This document shows positions 1-13,511 of a DNA stretch of 13,511 nucleotides, one piece after another. The first letter of the stretch is position 1; each line of letters opens with the position of its first letter. The notes under the pieces are model-generated. The model was given only the letters and a program-made list of their open reading frames with translations, had not been told where the DNA came from and ran no database searches. The position numbers were made by a program, and so were the translations under genes. Origin of the DNA: Escherichia coli (GTDB lineage: Bacteria > Pseudomonadota > Gammaproteobacteria > Enterobacterales > Enterobacteriaceae); NCBI RefSeq assembly GCF_003334315.1, contig NZ_QOWR01000081.1; one strand, given 5' to 3'.

Positions 1-76
1 CCCCGGCTGAACCCTGAACAATGCTACCGCCATACTGCGTCATGTCGCCCTGACGCGCTGCCGGTTTTCCGCTCAT
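1..76 (-). CDS. rhsA: Rhs-family protein, 5' end only (first 25 codons; gene continues beyond the window start)
   Basis: Reverse complement of 1-76 translates from ATG (76..74) as MSGKPAARQGDMTQYGGSIVQGSAG, the conserved N-terminus of E. coli Rhs core proteins. Divergent from yibF as in K-12 rhsA (symbol from synteny recollection). Confidence 0.65.
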   Translation of the reverse strand, partial: MSGKPAARQGDMTQYGGSIVQGSAG

Positions 77-1010: not shown

Positions 1011-2402
1011 ATGACAACCGAAACGCGTTCCCTCTATAGTCAACTTCCGGCTATTGATCGCTTATTGCGCGATAGCTCCTTCCTTTCTTTGCGTGATACT
1101 TATGGTCACACCCGCGTGGTGGAATTGTTGCGTCAGATGCTCGACGAAGCGCGAGAAGTGATTCGTGGCAGCCAGACGCTGCCTGCGTGGTGTGAAAACT
1201 GGGCGCAAGAAGTCGATGCCCGGTTGACGAAAGAAGCGCAGAGCGCGCTGCGTCCGGTGATCAACCTGACGGGAACCGTGCTGCATACCAACCTTGGGCG
1301 AGCTTTACAGGCGGAAGCCGCGGTGGAAGCCGTTGCGCAGGCTATGCGTTCGCCAGTGACCCTCGAGTACGATCTGGACGACGCTGGACGCGGACATCGC
1401 GATCGTGCGCTGGCGCAGTTGCTGTGCCGCATTACGGGGGCGGAAGATGCCTGTATCGTTAATAACAATGCGGCGGCGGTGTTATTGATGTTGGCGGCCA
1501 CTGCCAGCGGGAAAGAGGTGGTGGTTTCTCGCGGCGAACTGGTGGAGATTGGCGGCGCGTTTCGTATTCCCGATGTTATGCGTCAGGCAGGCTGCACCCT
1601 ACACGAAGTAGGGACCACCAACCGCACGCACGCGAATGATTATTGTCAGGCGGTGAATGAAAATACCGCACTGTTGATGAAAGTACATACCAGTAACTAC
1701 AGCATTCAGGGGTTCACCAAAGCGATAGATGAAGCGGAACTGGTGGCGCTCGGCAAAGAGCTGGATGTTCCCGTAGTGACTGATTTAGGCAGTGGCTCGC
1801 TGGTCGATCTTAGCCAGTACGGTTTGCCGAAAGAGCCAATGCCGCAGGAGTTGATTGCGGCGGGCGTCAGTCTGGTGAGTTTCTCCGGCGACAAGTTGTT
1901 AGGCGGGCCGCAGGCAGGAATTATTGTTGGTAAAAAAGAGATGATCGCCCGCCTGCAAAGCCACCCGCTGAAGCGTGCATTACGCGCGGATAAAATGACC
2001 CTCGCGGCGCTGGAAGCCACGTTGCGTCTTTATTTACACCCTGAAGCTCTGAGTGAAAAATTACCGACCCTGCGCCTGCTTACCCGCAGCGCAGAGGTCA
2101 TTCAAATCCAGGCACAACGTTTACAGGCTCCCCTTGCCGCACATTACGGCGCGGAGTTTGCGGTACAGGTTATGCCATGTCTTTCGCAGATTGGCAGTGG
2201 TTCGCTGCCGGTTGATCGCCTGCCGAGCGCGGCATTAACGTTTACACCCCATGATGGACGCGGTAGCCACCTTGAGTCATTAGCCGCCCGCTGGCGTGAA
2301 TTGCCAGTGCCGGTGATTGGTCGTATTTATGACGGACGATTGTGGCTGGATTTACGCTGCCTTGAAGATGAGCAACGGTTTTTGGAGATGTTGTTGAAAT
2401 GA
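1011..2402 (+). CDS. selA: L-seryl-tRNA(Sec) selenium transferase (selenocysteine synthase)
   Basis: 463-aa ORF, translation [22 protein letters not shown]... matches SelA as I recall it; stop overlaps selB start (ATGA). Confidence 0.93.
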
Positions 2403-5748: not shown

Positions 5749-7287
5749 ATGACCAATAATCCCCCTTCAGCACAGATTAAGCCCGGCGAGTATGGTTTCC
5801 CCCTCAAGTTAAAAGCCCGCTATGACAACTTTATTGGCGGCGAATGGGTAGCCCCTGCCGACGGCGAGTATTACCAGAATCTGACGCCGGTGACCGGGCA
5901 GCTGCTGTGCGAAGTGGCGTCTTCGGGCAAACGAGACATCGATCTGGCGCTGGATGCTGCGCACAAAGTGAAAGATAAATGGGCGCACACCTCGGTGCAG
6001 GATCGCGCGGCGATTCTGTTTAAGATTGCCGATCGAATGGAACAAAACCTTGAGCTGTTAGCGACGGCTGAAACCTGGGATAACGGCAAACCCATTCGCG
6101 AAACCAGTGCTGCCGACGTGCCGCTGGCGATTGACCATTTTCGCTATTTCGCCTCGTGTATTCGGGCGCAGGAAGGTGGGATCAGTGAAGTTGATAGCGA
6201 AACCGTGGCCTATCATTTCCATGAACCGTTAGGCGTGGTGGGGCAGATTATCCCGTGGAACTTCCCGCTGCTGATGGCGAGCTGGAAAATGGCTCCCGCG
6301 CTGGCGGCGGGCAACTGTGTGGTGCTGAAACCCGCACGTCTTACCCCGCTTTCTGTACTGCTGCTAATGGAAATTGTCGGTGATTTACTGCCGCCGGGCG
6401 TGGTGAACGTGGTCAATGGCGCAGGTGGGGTAATTGGCGAATATCTGGCGACCTCGAAACGCATCGCCAAAGTGGCGTTTACCGGCTCAACGGAAGTGGG
6501 CCAACAAATTATGCAATACGCAACGCAAAACATTATTCCGGTGACGCTGGAGTTGGGCGGTAAGTCGCCAAATATCTTCTTTGCTGATGTGATGGATGAA
6601 GAAGATGCCTTTTTCGATAAAGCGCTGGAAGGCTTTGCACTGTTTGCCTTTAACCAGGGCGAAGTTTGCACCTGTCCGAGTCGTGCTTTAGTGCAGGAAT
6701 CTATCTACGAACGCTTTATGGAACGCGCCATCCGCCGTGTCGAAAGCATTCGTAGCGGTAACCCGCTCGACAGCGTGACGCAAATGGGCGCGCAGGTTTC
6801 TCACGGGCAACTGGAAACCATCCTCAACTACATTGATATCGGTAAAAAAGAGGGCGCTGACGTGCTCACAGGCGGGCGGCGCAAGCTGCTGGAAGGTGAA
6901 CTGAAAGACGGCTACTACCTCGAACCGACGATTCTGTTTGGTCAGAACAATATGCGGGTGTTCCAGGAGGAGATTTTTGGCCCGGTGCTGGCGGTGACCA
7001 CCTTCAAAACGATGGAAGAAGCGCTGGAGCTGGCGAACGATACGCAATATGGCCTGGGCGCGGGCGTCTGGAGCCGCAACGGTAATCTGGCCTATAAGAT
7101 GGGGCGCGGCATACAGGCTGGGCGCGTGTGGACCAACTGTTATCACGCTTACCCGGCACATGCGGCGTTTGGTGGCTACAAACAATCAGGTATCGGTCGC
7201 GAAACCCACAAGATGATGCTGGAGCATTACCAGCAAACCAAGTGCCTGCTGGTGAGCTACTCGGATAAACCGTTGGGGCTGTTCTGA
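5749..7287 (+). CDS. aldB: Aldehyde dehydrogenase B (NAD(P)-dependent)
   Basis: 512-aa reading from ATG 5749 preceded by AAGGAGA (5736-5742); translation [17 protein letters not shown]... with ALDH catalytic signatures (ELGGKSP glutamate motif, catalytic Cys in GEVCTCPSR). The track ORF start at 5611 is an unsupported upstream extension that overlaps the yiaY terminator. Confidence 0.92.
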
Positions 7288-7318
7288 TATAAGAAGCTGG
7301 TCGCATTGGGTATTCATT

Positions 7319-7400
7319 GCCTGATGCGACGCTTACGCGTCTTATCATGCCTACGGGAACCTGACCGTAGGCCGGATAAGGCGTACACGCCGCATCCGGC
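7319..7400 (+). repeat. REP/BIME element (two REP palindromic units in opposite orientation) downstream of aldB
   Basis: GCCTGATGCGACGCTTACGCGTCTTATCATGCCTAC (7319-7354) and GTAGGCCGGATAAGGCGTACACGCCGCATCCGGC (7367-7400) match the enterobacterial REP consensus families as I recall them. Confidence 0.75.
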
Positions 7401-7505
7401 ATAAACAAAGCGCACGTTGTTACAATTTACGTTTTAAACCTACGTGCGCAATAACCCAGACTACGCCAACAGAAGTGCGTTTCTGGGGCGTGTTTTGTCA
7501 GGAGT

Positions 7506-7646
7506 TTAATCTCGCGTTTCGATGGTGAGCGGGCGAACCAGGCCGTAAATCACCATTGGTGATCCGAGGCCAATCAGCAATAAACGGTAGATAATTGAAG
7601 GTTTAATACGCTTAATCTGTACTGTGGATGTTTTACTGGAGTTATT
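7506..7646 (-). CDS. Hypothetical small protein (47 aa from ATG 7646..7644; 70 aa if started at 7718), one predicted transmembrane helix
   Basis: Only ORF in the AT-rich aldB-yiaW spacer; translation MNNSSKTSTVQIKRIKPSIIYRLLLIGLGSPMVIYGLVRPLTIETRD has a basic stretch followed by a about 20-aa hydrophobic segment; no clear Shine-Dalgarno; unverified. Confidence 0.15.
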   Translation of the reverse strand, partial: NNSSKTSTVQIKRIKPSIIYRLLLIGLGSPMVIYGLVRPLTIETRD

Positions 7647-7765
7647 CATTAGTTTGGCCAATAGTTCCACTATTTCAATATGATAAACCTCGTCCTGTTG
7701 AAAAACCAGACAGCACATTTAAGAAAGTATATAAAAAACAATATGTCGTTATATAAATAAGGAAA

Positions 7766-7794
7766 TTGCACTGCATCATGGCATTTCATAATAT
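7766..7794 (+). promoter_or_regulatory. Candidate sigma70 promoter for yiaWV (-35 TTGCAC, 17-bp spacer, -10 TAATAT)
   Basis: Hexamers read by eye at 7766-7771 and 7789-7794 in an AT-rich region about 40 bp upstream of the yiaW ATG; no experimental support. Confidence 0.2.
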
Positions 7795-7831
7795 GCGTTA
7801 ATTGTTCTTTTTTATATTCTTTGAGGGAAAT

Positions 7832-8155
7832 ATGTTCCTGGACTATTTTGCACTGGGAGTGCTTATTTTTGTATTTCTGGTGATCTTCTATGGGATCATT
7901 ATTTTACATGATATTCCCTACCTGATTGCCAAAAAACGTAATCATCCTCATGCCGACGCCATTCATGTTGCTGGTTGGGTGAGTCTTTTTACGTTACATG
8001 TTATCTGGCCGTTTTTGTGGATTTGGGCCACGCTTTACCGCCCGGAGCGGGGATGGGGAATGCAAAGCCATGATTCATCCGTTATGCAACTGCAACAGCG
8101 CATTGCCGGGCTGGAGAAACAGCTCGCCGACATCAAATCCTCTTCTGCCGAGTAA
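7832..8155 (+). CDS. yiaW: Small inner-membrane protein YiaW (DUF3302 family, AaeX-like partner of a membrane fusion protein)
   Basis: 107-aa reading from ATG 7832 preceded by GAGGGA; two hydrophobic helices ([40 protein letters not shown]) then a coiled C-terminal tail; the track start at 7802 lacks an RBS. Confidence 0.85.
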
Positions 8156-8160
8156 TACTT

Positions 8161-9306
8161 ATGGATTTACTGATTATTTTGACCTATGTGGCTTTTGCAT
8201 GGGCAATGTTTAAGATCTTCAAAATTCCCGTAAATAAATGGACCATTCCCACAGCGGCCCTGGGTGGAATATTTATTGTCAGCGGTCTAATTCTGTTAAT
8301 GAACTATAACCATCCGTATACCTTTAAAGCGCAAAAAGCGGTTATTTCTATTCCTGTTGTCCCACAGGTGACTGGTGTGGTGATTGAAGTGACGGATAAG
8401 AAAAATACGCTGATTAAAAAAGGTGAGGTGCTATTTCGACTGGACCCGACGCGTTATCAGGCGCGGGTGGATCGGCTGATGGCGGATATCGTTACCGCAG
8501 AACATAAACAGCGGGCGTTGGGCGCAGAGTTAGATGAGATGGCGGCGAATACTCAGCAGGCAAAGGCCACGCGGGATAAATTCGCTAAAGAGTATCAGCG
8601 TTACGCACGTGGCAGCCAGGCGAAAGTAAACCCGTTTTCAGAACGCGATATCGATGTGGCGCGGCAAAATTATCTGGCGCAGGAAGCCTCCGTGAAGTCA
8701 TCGGCGGCGGAACAAAAACAGATCCAGAGCCAGCTGGATAGCCTGGTGTTGGGTGAACATTCTCAAATCGCCAGCCTGAAAGCACAGCTCGCGGAAGCAA
8801 AATATAACCTTGAGCAGACGATAGTGCGTGCGCCGAGCGATGGTTATGTGACCCAGGTACTGATTCGTCCGGGTACCTATGCCGCGTCGCTGCCGCTACG
8901 TCCGGTGATGGTGTTTATACCCGATCAGAAACGACAAATCGTGGCGCAGTTCCGTCAGAACTCCTTGCTGCGACTGGCTCCTGGCGACGATGCGGAAGTG
9001 GTGTTTAATGCTCTGCCAGGTAAGGTATTCAGCGGTAAGCTGGCAGCCATTAGTCCAGCCGTTCCCGGCGGAGCTTATCAGTCGACCGGCACCTTACAGA
9101 CGTTAAACACAGCGCCGGGTTCAGATGGCGTTATCGCGACCATTGAACTGGATGAGCACACTGATTTGAGCGCTTTACCAGACGGTATTTACGCCCAGGT
9201 GGCGGTTTACTCTGATCATTTCAGCCATGTCTCGGTGATGCGCAAAGTGCTATTACGCATGACCAGCTGGGTGCATTACCCACACCTGCGGCAACCGTGG
9301 CGATAG
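8161..9306 (+). CDS. yiaV: HlyD-family membrane fusion protein YiaV; last about 9 codons are junction-derived, not native
   Basis: 381-aa ORF starting 5 nt after the yiaW stop; N-terminal TM helix, biotinyl/lipoyl-like beta-barrel and long coiled-coil segments typical of membrane fusion proteins; from about 9280 the same nucleotides encode the WcaK N-terminal motif in another frame. Confidence 0.85.
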
Positions 9307-9361
9307 CGCCATTCTGCGCGGGCTTTTAGATGCCATCAACACGCTCTCGCCTGAGGCTGAA

Positions 9362-10537
9362 GTGGATGTGATGAGCCGTTATCCGGTGAGTTCTTCCTGG
9401 TTGCTCAATCGCCCGGTGATGGGCGATCCGCTCTATTTGCAGATGAAAGCGCATAACAATGCGCCGGGCATGGTCGGGCGAGTGAAGAAAGTATTGCGTC
9501 GTCGCTATCAGCATCAGGTGCTGCTGTCACGCGTCACGGACAGCGGCAAGCTGCGCAATATCGCCATTGCTCAGGGCTTTACCGATTTTGTGCGTCTGTT
9601 GTCCGATTATGACGCGATTATCCAGGTGGGCGGATCGTTCTTCGTCGACCTGTATGGTGTGACGCAGTTTGAGCACGCGCTGTGCACCTTTATGGCGAAA
9701 AAACCGATTTATATGGTCGGCCATAGTGTCGGGCCGTTCCAGGCACCGGCGTTTAACCATATGGCAAACTATGTCTTTGGTCACTGCGACGCGCTGTTCC
9801 TGCGCGAGTCGGTCAGCCTTGATTTGATGAAACGCAGCGACATTGACACCTCGAAAGTGGAGAAGGGTGTCGATACCGCCTGGTTGGTCGATCACCACGA
9901 TGACAGTTTTGACGCGAGCTACGCCGTCCAGCACTGGCTGAATGTGGCGCAGCAGCAGAAAACCGTGGCGATTACCCTGCGTGAACTGGCGCCGTTTGAT
10001 AAACGCCTGGGCACCACGCAGGAAGCCTACGAAAAAGCGTTTGCGGGCGTGGTAAATCGGATCATCGCCAGCGGCTGGCAGGTGATGGCGCTCTCTACCT
10101 GTACGGGCATCGACAGCTATAACAAAGACGATCGCATGGTGGCGCTTAACCTGCGTAAACATATTCAGGACCCATCGCGCTACCACGTGGTGATGGATGA
10201 GCTTAACGATCTCGAAATGGGCAAACTGCTGGGCGCCTGTGACCTGACGGTCGGTACGCGTCTGCATTCAGCAATTATCTCCATGAACTTCGGAACACCG
10301 GCGATTGCGATTAACTACGAACACAAATCAGCGGGCATTATGCAGCAACTGGGTATGCCGGAAATGGCAGTCGATATTCGCCATCTACTGAATGGCGACC
10401 TGGAAGCGATGGCGGCAGACACCTTGGGTCAACTCTCAACGCTTGTGCCGCGCCTCAATGACGCGGTAGCGCGTGAGCGCGCGGCGGGGCTGGCGATGGT
10501 GGAATCGGTATTAACGCGCATCGGGGAGGGGAAATGA
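9362..10537 (+). CDS. wcaK: Colanic acid biosynthesis pyruvyl transferase WcaK, 5'-truncated (homology begins at 9281 with no start codon; first in-frame starts are GTG 9362 and ATG 9371)
   Basis: Frame-2 translation from 9281 reads [20 protein letters not shown]..., the conserved N-terminal motif of polysaccharide pyruvyl transferases (PF04230-type); the frame is closed by TGA at 9260-9262; stop overlaps the wcaL start (ATGA). Confidence 0.8.
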   Translation: MDVMSRYPVSSSWLLNRPVMGDPLYLQMKAHNNAPGMVGRVKKVLRRRYQHQVLLSRVTDSGKLRNIAIAQGFTDFVRLLSDYDAIIQVGGSFFVDLYGVTQFEHALCTFMAKKPIYMVGHSVGPFQAPAFNHMANYVFGHCDALFLRESVSLDLMKRSDIDTSKVEKGVDTAWLVDHHDDSFDASYAVQHWLNVAQQQKTVAITLRELAPFDKRLGTTQEAYEKAFAGVVNRIIASGWQVMALSTCTGIDSYNKDDRMVALNLRKHIQDPSRYHVVMDELNDLEMGKLLGACDLTVGTRLHSAIISMNFGTPAIAINYEHKSAGIMQQLGMPEMAVDIRHLLNGDLEAMAADTLGQLSTLVPRLNDAVARERAAGLAMVESVLTRIGEGK

Positions 10538-11760
10538 AGGTTGGTTTCTTCTTGCTGAAATTCCCGCTGTCGTCTGAAACCTTTGTGCTCAACCAGATTG
10601 TGGCCTTTATCGAAATGGGCCACGAGGTCGAAATTATCGCCCTGCAAAAGGGCGATATGACCAACACCCACGCGGCGTTCACGCAATATGACCTGGCAGC
10701 GAAAACACGCTGGTTACAGGATGAACCAGTGAGTACGGGCGCAAAGTTTCGTCATCGCGCAGTCAGCACGTTGCGCGGGTTACATCGCCCGGCAACGTGG
10801 CAGGCGCTCAATATGAAGCGTTACGGCCATGAAGCGCGCAACCTGATCCTCTCGGCCATTTGCGGCAATAACGCCCAGCCATTTAGCGCCGACGTATTTA
10901 TTGCTCACTTCGGCCCGGCGGGGGTAACTGCGGCGAAACTGCGCGAACTGGGCGTGATCCGCGGCAAAATCGCGACCGTCTTTCACGGCATTGATATCTC
11001 CAGCCGCGATGTGCTGAGCCACTACACGCCGGAGTATCAACAGCTTTTCCGTCGTGGCGATCTGATGCTGCCGATCAGTAATTTGTGGGCGAAACGATTG
11101 CAGGGAATGGGCTGCCCGGCGGCGAAAATTGCCGTTTCGCGAATGGGCGTCAACATGGACCGTTTTGCCCTGCGCCCCACCAAAGCGCCGGGTGAGACGC
11201 TGCAAATAATCTCAGTGGCCCGCCTGACGGAGAAAAAAGGTCTGCATGTAGCGATTGAAGCCTGCCGTCAGTTGAAAGAGCGCGGTGTGGCGTTTCACTA
11301 TCGCATTCTCGGCATCGGCCCGTGGGAACGCCGCCTGCGCACATTGATCGAACAGTATCAACTGGAAGGGTACGTGGAGATGCCGGGCTTTAAGCCCAGC
11401 CATGAGGTAAAAGCGATGCTCGATGAGGCGGATGTCTTTCTGCTGCCGTCGATTACCGGCGCAGATGGCGATATGGAAGGCATTCCTGTGGCACTGATGG
11501 AAGCGATGGCAGTGGGCATTCCGGTGCTTTCGACCGAGCATAGCGGTATTCCGGAACTGATAGACGCCAACGCCTCCGGCTGGCTGGTGGCGGAGAACGA
11601 CGCTCCGGCGCTGGCGGGCAAACTCAGCGAACTGCGCCATCTTGATGAGCCGACGCTGCGCCCGGTGCTACAACGCGCCCGCCAAAAAGTTGAAACCGAG
11701 TTCAATCAGCAGGTGATTAACCGCCAGCTCGCGAGCCTGCTGCAAACCCTTTGCTATTGA
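10534..11760 (+). CDS. wcaL: Colanic acid biosynthesis glycosyltransferase WcaL (GT4 family)
   Basis: 408-aa ORF; N-terminus MKVGFFLLKFPLSSETFVLNQ... and C-terminal GT-B motif region (EGIPVALMEAMAVGIPVLSTEHSGIPELI) with the E-X7-E signature typical of GT4 enzymes. Confidence 0.88.
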   Translation: MKVGFFLLKFPLSSETFVLNQIVAFIEMGHEVEIIALQKGDMTNTHAAFTQYDLAAKTRWLQDEPVSTGAKFRHRAVSTLRGLHRPATWQALNMKRYGHEARNLILSAICGNNAQPFSADVFIAHFGPAGVTAAKLRELGVIRGKIATVFHGIDISSRDVLSHYTPEYQQLFRRGDLMLPISNLWAKRLQGMGCPAAKIAVSRMGVNMDRFALRPTKAPGETLQIISVARLTEKKGLHVAIEACRQLKERGVAFHYRILGIGPWERRLRTLIEQYQLEGYVEMPGFKPSHEVKAMLDEADVFLLPSITGADGDMEGIPVALMEAMAVGIPVLSTEHSGIPELIDANASGWLVAENDAPALAGKLSELRHLDEPTLRPVLQRARQKVETEFNQQVINRQLASLLQTLCY

Positions 11761-11766
11761 GGTTGC

Positions 11767-13158
11767 ATGGATAAAAAATTTTCCCGACGTCGCTTCCTGT
11801 CGGCAGGCGCTACGCTTGCCGCCATCCCACTGCTACACAGCCCCGCTGTACGCGCGCTGGGGCGTAATGATGCCGTTGATATCCGCAACTATCTGGTCGG
11901 TAATGACTGGATCCGTGCATTTCGTCAGGCGTTTGACGATGCCGATATTATCGACGTCCCCAAAGGCGTGATTTGCGACAATATTAATACCGGCATCATC
12001 ATGCCACCGGGTAAAACGCTGCAGGTAAACGGCAGCCTGAAAGGCAATGGTCGTGGGCGTTTTGCGTTGCAGGATGGGTGTAAAGTGGTGGGGGAGGGGA
12101 GTCTCAATAATATTACTCTCGACGTGCGCGGATCTGACTGCACCATCGAAGGTCTGGCGATGAGCGGCTTTGGCCCGGTGGCGCAAATCTACATCGGCGG
12201 CAAACAAAAAAGGACGATGCGCAATCTCACCATCACGCGGATTAATATCAGCCAGGCTAACTACGGTATTTTACGCCAGGGTTTCCATAATCAACTCGAC
12301 GGCGTAAAAATCACCCACAGTAAATTTAGCTACCTGCAGGGTGATGCCATTGAATGGAACGTCGCGATTAACGACAAGAATATCCTCATTTCTGACCATG
12401 TGATTGACCACATTGATTGCACCAATGGCAAGACCAACTGGGGCATCGGTATTGGGCTTGCGGGCAGCACCTACGATAACGACTACCCGGAGCACCAGGC
12501 GGTGAAAAACTTTGTCGTCGCCAATATCACCGGCAGCCACTGCCGACAGTTGGTTCACGTCGAAAACGGTAAACACTTTATTATCCGTAATATTAAGGCA
12601 CGAAATATCACCCCGGAATACAGTAAGAAAGCCGGAATTGATAACGCTACGGTAGCAATATATGGATGTGATAATTTCGTTATCGATGGTGTGGATATGG
12701 TTAATAGCGCGGGCATGCTAATTGGCTATGGTGTTATCAAAGGGAAATATCTGTCGATACCGCAGAATTTCAGGATAAATAATGTGCGGATGGATAATCG
12801 ACAATTAACGCTAAAGCTGCGGGGAATACAGATTTCATCGGGCAATGCACCTTCGTTTGTTGCGCTTACCAACCTCGATCTGAACCATGCGTCGCTGGAG
12901 ATCCACAACAAGCCGCAACACATATTTATGCGTAATATCAAGGTGATACAGCCTGCGGCGCGCGGGCCCGCACTACAGCTCCACTTCGACTTACGCAAGG
13001 ATGTTCGCGGGAAGTTTATGGCCAAACAGGAGACGCTGCTCTCGATGTCAAATATTCATGCGGTCAATGAAAACGGCCAGCGGTCTGTGGATATTGACCG
13101 TATTGATCAGCACGTTGTCAATGTCGATGCGCTGAATTTTACCCTGCCTAAACGCTGA
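11767..13158 (+). CDS. wcaM: Colanic acid biosynthesis protein WcaM (Tat-signal, predicted right-handed beta-helix)
   Basis: 463-aa ORF, GAGG 9 nt upstream of ATG; twin-arginine signal [18 protein letters not shown]...A-VRA-LG; repeated N-I-T / V-x-N motifs consistent with a parallel beta-helix; last gene after wcaL as in the colanic acid cluster. Confidence 0.85.
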
Positions 13159-13360
13159 ATTTTTAGCCGAACCCACCTCTTCAGACGCATTCTCGGATTG
13201 TATCCAGAGATTTAGCGGTATTTACCCGATACTATGAGAAAACATAGTGGATCAAACAACGTTAATAGCTATAATTCATCAACCGTATATAGGTGGACAC
13301 GATAATGGGTGATGATGCCAACTTACTGATTTAGTGTATGATGGTGTTTTTGAGGTGCTC

Positions 13361-13420
13361 CAGTGGCTTCTGTTTCTATCAGCTGTCCCTCCTGTTCAGC
13401 TACTGACGGGGTGGTGCGTA
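13361..13420 (+). promoter_or_regulatory. JUMPstart-like sequence with degenerate ops-like core, downstream of wcaM (upstream of the next polysaccharide locus)
   Basis: Begins CAGTGGCT (13361-13368) and ends GGGGTGGTGCGT (13408-13419), resembling JUMPstart ends (CAGTGGCTCTGG...GGGGCGGTAGCGT) as recalled, but the 8-bp ops GGCGGTAG is not intact. Confidence 0.2.
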
Positions 13421-13511
13421 ACGGCAAAAGCACCGCCGGACATCAGCGCTATCTCTGCTCTCACTGCCGTAAAACATGGCAACTGCAGTTCACTTACACC
13501 GCTTCTCAACC

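Follow-up and report, generated by a model that had tools for sequence, protein, structure and literature searches.

Tightly packed wcaK-wcaL-wcaM genes beside yiaV in an Escherichia coli draft genome: a probable inherited remnant of the colanic-acid cluster end

The genes wcaK, wcaL and wcaM stand at the end of the colanic-acid cluster, and their tight packing beside yiaV in an Escherichia coli draft genome raises the question of what such an arrangement means at this place. The window analysed here is the whole contig QOWR01000081.1 (13,511 nt) of draft GCA_003334315.1. A first-pass annotation of its sequence had held that the packing shows one translational and transcriptional unit, with expression of all three genes depending on whatever transcription crosses the yiaV junction. 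Our results suggest that the ATGA overlap and the short spacer are probably the inherited architecture of the wca/cps cluster end, of which only a remnant is present in this contig. The wcaK/wcaL overlap and the wcaL-wcaM gap are in themselves ordinary and already known, being visible in the K-12 annotation, and the noteworthy facts surround the overlap: a beheaded wcaK, an allele of Pseudocitrobacter type, and an ectopic yiaV junction capped by IS1. The sequence features themselves, their conservation, the truncation of wcaK, and the junctions with their recurrence in several assemblies are shown; from them we infer that the genes are co-transcribed and coupled, that transcription reads through from yiaWV and that WcaK has lost its function.

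Both spacings reported by the first-pass annotation are correct in the open reading frame table and in the sequence itself: wcaK and wcaL overlap by 4 nt in an ATGA, and 6 nt lie between wcaL and the ATG of wcaM (Table 1). The gene names are right as well, with NCBIfam equivalog models matched above their curated cut-offs for WcaK (TIGR04006, 865 bits, cut-off 727), WcaL (TIGR04005, cut-off 538) and WcaM (TIGR04004, cut-off 795). Because the profile alignments of WcaL and WcaM have their first position at or beside residue 1 (residues 1-406 of WcaL aligned to profile positions 1-406), and that of WcaK ends at profile position 426 of 426, the starts of wcaL and wcaM and the stop of wcaK are native. 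The gene order and strand, with the 4-nt overlap and the short spacer, are those of the terminal genes of the wca/cps cluster.

Table 1. Positions of the genes, junctions and putative signals discussed in the text
Feature	Position	Strand	Description
yiaW (DUF3302)	7832..8155	+	5 nt upstream of yiaV
Chimeric yiaV', 381 aa	8161..9306	+	native last five residues LYLDH replaced by PHLRQPWR
yiaV/wcaK junction	9280	.	yiaV identity through 9280, wcaK identity from 9280
5'-truncated wcaK (pyruvyl transferase)	9280..10537	+	DNA from codon 9, without ATG; profile positions 8-426 only
Predicted RNA hairpin	10521..10558	+	predicted to pair the wcaL Shine-Dalgarno and the AU of AUG with wcaL codons 4-7
wcaL Shine-Dalgarno GGGGAGGGG	10523..10531	+	inside the wcaK 3' end; anti-SD duplex -11.5 kcal/mol
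ATGA	10534..10537	+	wcaL start ATG 10534-10536 over wcaK-frame stop TGA 10535-10537
wcaL, full-length GT4 glycosyltransferase, 408 aa	10534..11760	+	TIGR04005, 804 bits
wcaL stop, wcaM Shine-Dalgarno and spacer	11758..11766	+	TGA 11758-11760, GAGG 11759-11762, GGTTGC 11761-11766
wcaM, full-length, 463 aa	11767..13158	+	TIGR04004, 866 bits
galF start codon, sole galF remnant	13305..13307	+	JML285 wcaM-galF homology ends at 13307/13308
IS1 left end, inverted repeat and insA start	13308..13511	+	runs to the contig end

The surroundings of the three genes are those of another locus. The first 9280 bases make up the yibF-selA-selB-yiaY-aldB-yiaW-yiaV locus of E. coli and match several complete genomes at 100% identity; in the yiaV part, identity to K-12 strains is also 100%. 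At the yiaV/wcaK joint, one nucleotide (C) is common to both sides and no IS element is found at the join; a 3-nt microhomology (ACC) was considered and rejected, since the alignment and BLAST ends share only 1 nt. The new tail of YiaV is read from wcaK DNA out of frame and stops at TAG 9304-9306, and the GC profile has no compositional break at the junction. From this joint the wca segment, 4,028 bp of wcaK'-wcaL-wcaM-galF(ATG), extends to IS1. Positions 13308-13511 match IS1 copies of E. coli genomes at 100% identity; they hold the inverted repeat and, after it, the start of insA, whose zinc ribbon is recognised (Zn_ribbon_InsA) in an ORF at 13363-13511. Only the first 204 nt of the element lie in the contig, which ends in repeats on both sides, rhs on the left and IS1 on the right. 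The native context of these genes, with wzxC upstream, galF downstream and the 20-gene run from wza to wcaM, is not found in the window, which has yiaV upstream and IS1 at the galF ATG.

The packing of the genes was compared across 75 loci containing WcaL relatives, one genome per species, with the three genes located by tblastn and 70 loci usable. The ATGA overlap of wcaK and wcaL is present in 67 of the 70 usable Enterobacteriaceae loci, all of different species, and the three loci without it belong to Mangrovibacter, in which a gap of +2/+3 nt separates the two genes. The wcaL-wcaM gap lies between 6 and 42 nt, most often at 11-12 nt, and a Shine-Dalgarno (SD)-like purine run precedes both the wcaL and the wcaM start in every one of the 70 loci. 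The 6-nt gap occurs only in the window, in E. coli JML285 and in two Pseudocitrobacter species, the gap elsewhere being 9-42 nt. This comparison indicates that the wcaK/wcaL overlap is a conserved ancestral trait of the cluster, not an accident. The distance itself falls in the class of gene spacing that is most common among bacteria. Neighbouring E. coli genes read in the same direction are most often -4 nt (ATGA) apart, and 707 of 2,987 such pairs are spaced by -8 to +6 nt (PMC10666635). In the same window, selA and selB also overlap by an ATGA (2399-2402).

The counterpart in E. coli K-12, wcaK-wcaL-wcaM (b2045-b2043) at the end of the colanic-acid cluster, has the same gene order, strand and 4-nt overlap, with GGGGAGG 5' of wcaL and a short wcaL-wcaM spacer containing GAGG. 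The spacer is 10 nt in K-12 but 6 nt here, and DNA identity is only 75%; moreover, wcaK is complete in K-12, with wzxC upstream (275-nt gap) and galF downstream, whereas in the window it is truncated, with yiaV upstream and IS1 downstream. Closer likeness is seen with Pseudocitrobacter faecalis, P. vendiensis and JML285-type E. coli, in which the ATGA and the 6-nt TGAGGTTGCATG junction are identical to those of the window. Their wca loci are complete and native, between wzxC and galF, whereas in the window only a 4-kb fragment is present, ectopically placed.

The first-pass statement on the expression of all three genes passed over the state of wcaK, which begins in the window at codon 9. In its frame, a stop at 9260-9262 is followed by no ATG, GTG or TTG before GTG 9362, and the in-frame candidate starts are ATT 9275, which lies in yiaV DNA, GTG 9362 and ATG 9371, the candidate restarts having weak SDs (-3.7 to -5.6 kcal/mol). 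The deposited annotation nevertheless presents wcaK as an intact 420-aa gene from ATT 9275, in yiaV-derived DNA. The wcaK start is ATG in 71 of 71 loci compared; residues 1-27 of WcaK are nearly invariant, and residues 1-8 are identical in these loci save two L3I changes. In an AF2 model of the full-length WcaK of this allele (mean pLDDT 84, pTM 0.86), residues 2-8 form the first beta-strand and residues 13-30 the next helix; a sequence search of the PDB returned no solved WcaK homologue. An intact wcaK with its ATG and N-terminus, as belongs to a wca/cps cluster, is therefore absent from the window. Because the start, the near-invariant N-terminus and the first beta-strand of the predicted fold are lost, and because the SDs of the restarts are weak, wcaK is probably dead, and the notion of all three genes as an expression unit is undercut accordingly.

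On the question of a single unit, the packing leaves no room between the genes for a terminator plus a promoter, and to this extent the first-pass reading is supported. That the packing also shows a translational unit does not follow, because wcaL and wcaM each have their own SD and could initiate independently. The SD of wcaL gives the strongest anti-SD pairing among the 13 starts scored in the window, and the GAGG of wcaM, overlapping the wcaL stop codon, pairs at -6.3 kcal/mol. The wcaK/wcaL pair also carries two marks of a translationally coupled pair, the ATGA stop/start overlap and an SD, GGGGAGGGG, inside the upstream gene at its 3' end. Of five native E. coli ATGA pairs tested, four were tightly coupled by termination-reinitiation, usually aided by an SD in the upstream gene, and the fifth, bioBF, was not coupled (PMC6728339). 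Coupling falls steeply with distance, reinitiation dropping by 5-70%, according to the pair, at +2 nt and by 80-100% at 38 nt (PMC10666635). Given the tight packing, the strong SD within wcaK and the precedent of the E. coli ATGA pairs, co-transcription together with termination-reinitiation coupling would be the expected mechanism for wcaK-wcaL-wcaM. The wcaK/wcaL pair resembles the coupled ATGA pairs hyfHI, astDB, ydbH/ynbE as well as menDH in its 4-nt overlap and in having the SD in the upstream gene, and possibly in local structure around the SD, which here is predicted only at wcaL. It differs in that coupling was measured for those pairs, while wcaK/wcaL is known by its sequence and its wcaK has no start codon.

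The structure predicted at the wcaL start would make it a possible candidate for a masking element. Its fold has a z-score of -1.78, with 12 of 200 shuffles as good in a 101-nt window, and the hairpin is pairable in 83% of cells against 41-64% in slid controls (72 sequences). Covariation in the same 72 sequences is no better than in shuffles, and we make no claim that the SD-masking hairpin is real. At the start of wcaM, the corresponding region gave no structure signal (z -0.33), and an Rfam scan of the whole window returned no family at the gathering threshold.

With regard to transcription, the wza cluster runs from wza through wcaM, 20 genes in all, and phosphorylated RcsB activates it (PMC9143390), and transcript levels of wcaD and wcaM mirror those of wza in K-12 (PMC8117528). 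Repeat-unit synthesis is completed by WcaL and WcaK, which catalyse its final two steps (PMC12826051). The contig has neither the upstream wca genes nor the cps promoter, and transcription could reach wcaKLM from just one co-directional unit upstream, the yiaW-yiaV pair. Because of this absence it is reasonable to suggest, in keeping with the first-pass view of the yiaV junction, that wcaKLM may depend on transcription entering from yiaW-yiaV, which would be the simplest origin of wcaL/wcaM RNA. Promoter and terminator consensus motifs were scanned over 7200-13511, where the counts equalled the shuffled expectation, that is, chance level, and promoters internal to coding sequence are beyond the reach of such a scan. 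With that chance-level scan, a promoter-like site was seen at 7655-7684, ahead of yiaW. On the + strand, the same scan, again at chance level, gave neither a promoter-like site within wcaK (9280-10537) nor a terminator-like site from the yiaV body to the end of wcaM. The ops/JUMPStart core GGCGGTAG has no match on the + strand of the window, and its single minus-strand match, at 24-31 in the rhs tail, is at chance level. In Rho-dependent polarity, loss of efficient wcaK translation and of RfaH-type antitermination would tend to lower downstream transcription.

According to the reading we prefer, that of an inherited cluster end, a single long transcript in the native cluster would start upstream of wza, and a ribosome ending wcaK would stop with the wcaL AUG in its decoding site, just 3' of a strong SD, and could reinitiate there. 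Such coupling would hold WcaL and WcaK in fixed proportion, and for wcaM, with its GAGG on the wcaL stop codon, reinitiation, fresh binding or the two together could provide the start. In the contig, transcription would have to enter from yiaW-yiaV, without the cps promoter, and wcaK-to-wcaL coupling would need the weak restarts inside wcaK (the ATT, GTG or ATG given above); without these, wcaL would depend on its own strong SD.

The genes might instead be expressed independently, from a promoter inside wcaK or in the 3' part of yiaV and with separate SDs for wcaL and wcaM, the overlap being nothing more than compact coding. This would agree with the strength of the wcaL SD (-11.5 kcal/mol, the strongest in the window), with the GAGG that wcaM has of its own, with the uncoupled ATGA pair bioBF (PMC6728339) and with the missing covariation in the putative masking hairpin, and the consensus scans are too insensitive for internal promoters. 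Nevertheless, the scan gave no promoter-like site on the + strand at 9280-10537, the other four of the five tested ATGA pairs are coupled (PMC6728339), and wcaM RNA follows wza in K-12 (PMC8117528). Furthermore, the ATGA has been kept in 67 of 70 species despite DNA identity of 72-77%, which fits selection on the arrangement. Independent expression appears unlikely. A weightier alternative is that wcaKLM are not meaningfully expressed at all, the transcription from yiaWV being weak or terminated by Rho in a poorly translated wcaK; the ops/RfaH signal for antitermination, natively upstream of wza, would be gone, and the packing would have no present function. A wcaK without a canonical start and without its invariant beta-strand, the weak SDs of its candidate restarts (-3.7 to -5.6 kcal/mol) and the lack of an ops element on the + strand all point in this direction, as do the absence of the rest of the pathway from the contig, the destruction of galF by IS1 and the still deeper truncations of the same DNA in other strains. 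Against it, wcaL and wcaM are intact full-length ORFs above the equivalog cut-offs, and no intrinsic terminator is predicted, in a scan that performs at chance level. However, other strains have the same DNA for these ORFs without a difference, so that there has been too little time for visible decay. We consider such silence quite possible, while leaning slightly against it.

The allele itself is uncommon in E. coli. The wca segment of the window is 99.2% identical to seven complete E. coli genomes and 92-94% identical to seven more, whereas its identity to K-12, and to the large majority of E. coli, is about 75%; identity is 92.4% to Pseudocitrobacter faecalis and 91.1% to P. vendiensis, with WcaL 97-98% identical to that of Pseudocitrobacter. 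Altogether, 14 of 5,426 complete E. coli genomes have this allele type, in its native context with galF downstream, and JML285, with a DNA identity of 99.2%, has the identical arrangement in a native wzxC-wcaK-wcaL-wcaM-galF. Neither the yiaV/wcaK junction nor the galF/IS1 junction occurs in any of the 5,426 complete genomes, and a literature search on the contig, assembly and run accessions returned nothing. Other E. coli drafts hold wcaL/wcaM DNA 100% identical to that of the window with different left ends: one such end is a fragment of an IS21-family transposase joined to wcaL at the equivalent of 10668/10669, and another is 27 nt of unassigned sequence joined to wcaK at 9686/9687. Since the left ends of identical DNA differ, the wca segment appears to have been cut or moved repeatedly.

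The zero count among complete genomes, the bare yiaV/wcaK joint with 1 nt in common and no IS, and the repeats at the contig ends (rhs left, IS1 right) might be taken as signs of a chimeric contig, with wcaKLM really lying in a normal wca cluster. Such an artefact is largely refuted and extremely improbable: the exact chimeric YiaV protein is deposited under at least four GenBank E. coli accessions, whose adjoining accession numbers are wcaK and wcaL in consecutive entries, and the joint was reassembled independently in the Logan assemblies of SRR10357290 and SRR3824135. The joint is real and clonal, rather than the product of a single faulty assembly. On chromosomes of the K-12 type, one strand carries both wcaK, at 2.12 Mb, and yiaV, at about 3.75 Mb, and the 1.63 Mb between them include essential genes. 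A simple deletion in a K-12-like chromosome was therefore rejected as the origin of the joint, since this whole interval would be removed, and the wca fragment was more probably relocated to, or inserted at, yiaV. A more specific account would take the joint as the footprint of an ectopic capture, in which a wca/O-antigen piece of Pseudocitrobacter type became fixed at yiaV in a K-12-like E. coli. One end would have been anchored in IS1 and the other joined illegitimately, with 1 nt in common, leaving wcaL and wcaM intact under the yiaWV promoter, and the three differing left-hand truncations of 100%-identical DNA elsewhere would mark repeated relocation. We regard this fuller account as speculative and doubtful; if it were true, the orphaned glycosyltransferase WcaL would be expressed together with WcaM free of Rcs control, and other envelope glycans could become their targets.

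A comparable displacement is known from O89m-type E. coli (ST10 complex), in which the O-antigen locus and a partial wcaM have moved between nfsB and ybdK, bracketed by IS elements (PMC6128206). The window resembles it in having a fragment of the wca/O-antigen region at a non-native site in a K-12-like background, with an IS1 boundary and cut wca genes, and differs in its site, in the direct join to yiaV without an IS at the left boundary and in containing no O-antigen genes in the contig. The tight spacing of wcaK-wcaL-wcaM itself adds nothing new. Of modest interest for E. coli genome dynamics are the presence in E. coli of an inter-genus wca allele, Pseudocitrobacter-like in type, and the clonal shift of a part of the surface-polysaccharide region, in association with IS1, to the yiaV locus. 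The locus also calls for caution in annotation, in that an orphaned wcaKLM, with a beheaded wcaK rescued by an ATT start, is no evidence of colanic-acid capacity. An IS1 copy downstream of yiaV in strains L6-21 and ECZP248 was considered and rejected; the annotation puts this IS1 upstream, in rhsB, and gives yiaV-yiaU-yiaT as intact in both strains.

The last three colanic-acid genes, wcaK-wcaL-wcaM, lie downstream of a joint at which wcaK codon 9 is fused straight onto yiaV, with a shared sequence of only 1 nt and no IS element at the joint. The fusion yields a YiaV chimera of 381 aa and leaves wcaK without its ATG. In the deposited gene call, wcaK (420 aa) is given an ATT start codon that is itself yiaV-derived DNA, and this call rescues wcaK despite the loss of the ATG and eight invariant residues. 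Four E. coli drafts in GenBank carry the joint, as do two Logan assemblies, but none of the complete E. coli genomes (5,426 searched) has it.

The wcaKLM segment is a Pseudocitrobacter-like allele, with 92.4% DNA identity to P. faecalis versus 75% to K-12, and only 14 complete E. coli genomes out of 5,426 have this allele at the native locus, which together point to inter-genus exchange at the wca/O-antigen region. The intergenic gap between wzxC and wcaK was 275 nt in K-12 versus 15 nt in the Pseudocitrobacter-type allele of strain JML285; judging from these lengths, K-12 has space ahead of wcaK to hold an additional element, which the Pseudocitrobacter-type allele lacks.

Other E. coli drafts carried wcaL/wcaM DNA 100% identical to that of the window behind different left junctions, formed either by a piece from within an IS21-family transposase gene fused to wcaL or by a 27-nt stretch fused to wcaK. 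In several of these drafts, the downstream O-antigen cluster was broken by IS1 after a wzy-like gene.

On the right side of the window, IS1 directly follows the galF start codon and extends to the contig end, so that galF and all downstream DNA are either replaced or outside the contig. This wcaM/galF-ATG::IS1 joint likewise had no match in any complete E. coli genome covered by the search. At its left end, the contig opens within the tail of an rhs core gene (minus strand), and both contig ends are therefore repeats. The same neighbourhood in related complete genomes (loci L001, L006 and L007) was rich in IS1; rhsB carried IS1 in strains L6-21 and ECZP248, and strain 2017.04.03CC contained IS1 within yiaV as well as IS1 adjoining a truncated yiaU.

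Coordinates of the junctions and related features (window positions or window-equivalents unless a locus is named)
Feature	Sequence	Position
rhs core gene tail	window	1-76
selA/selB overlap	window	2399-2402
yiaV-wcaK joint	window	9280 (region 9200-9400)
ATT start of deposited wcaK	window	9275-9277
wcaKLM segment	window	9280-13307
galF start codon and IS1	window	13305-13511
IS21-family fragment/wcaL	other drafts	10668/10669
27-nt stretch/wcaK	other drafts	9686/9687
Variant left junctions	draft loci L010, L011, L013-L016	first 54-140 nt
Variant left junction	draft locus L009	first 27 nt
wzxC-wcaK gap	K-12 locus L008	7406-7680
wzxC-wcaK gap	JML285 locus L002	3963-3977
Shared contig end in wcaK	Logan contigs L004, L005	10126

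The two independent Logan contigs with the yiaV-wcaK joint both end at the identical wcaK base. No exact word of at least 31 nt is shared with the K-12-type allele. These strains could possibly carry a second copy, truncated differently. Elsewhere in the window, selA/selB shows the same ATGA overlap motif as wcaK/wcaL, a second instance, in one window, of the commonest overlap class.
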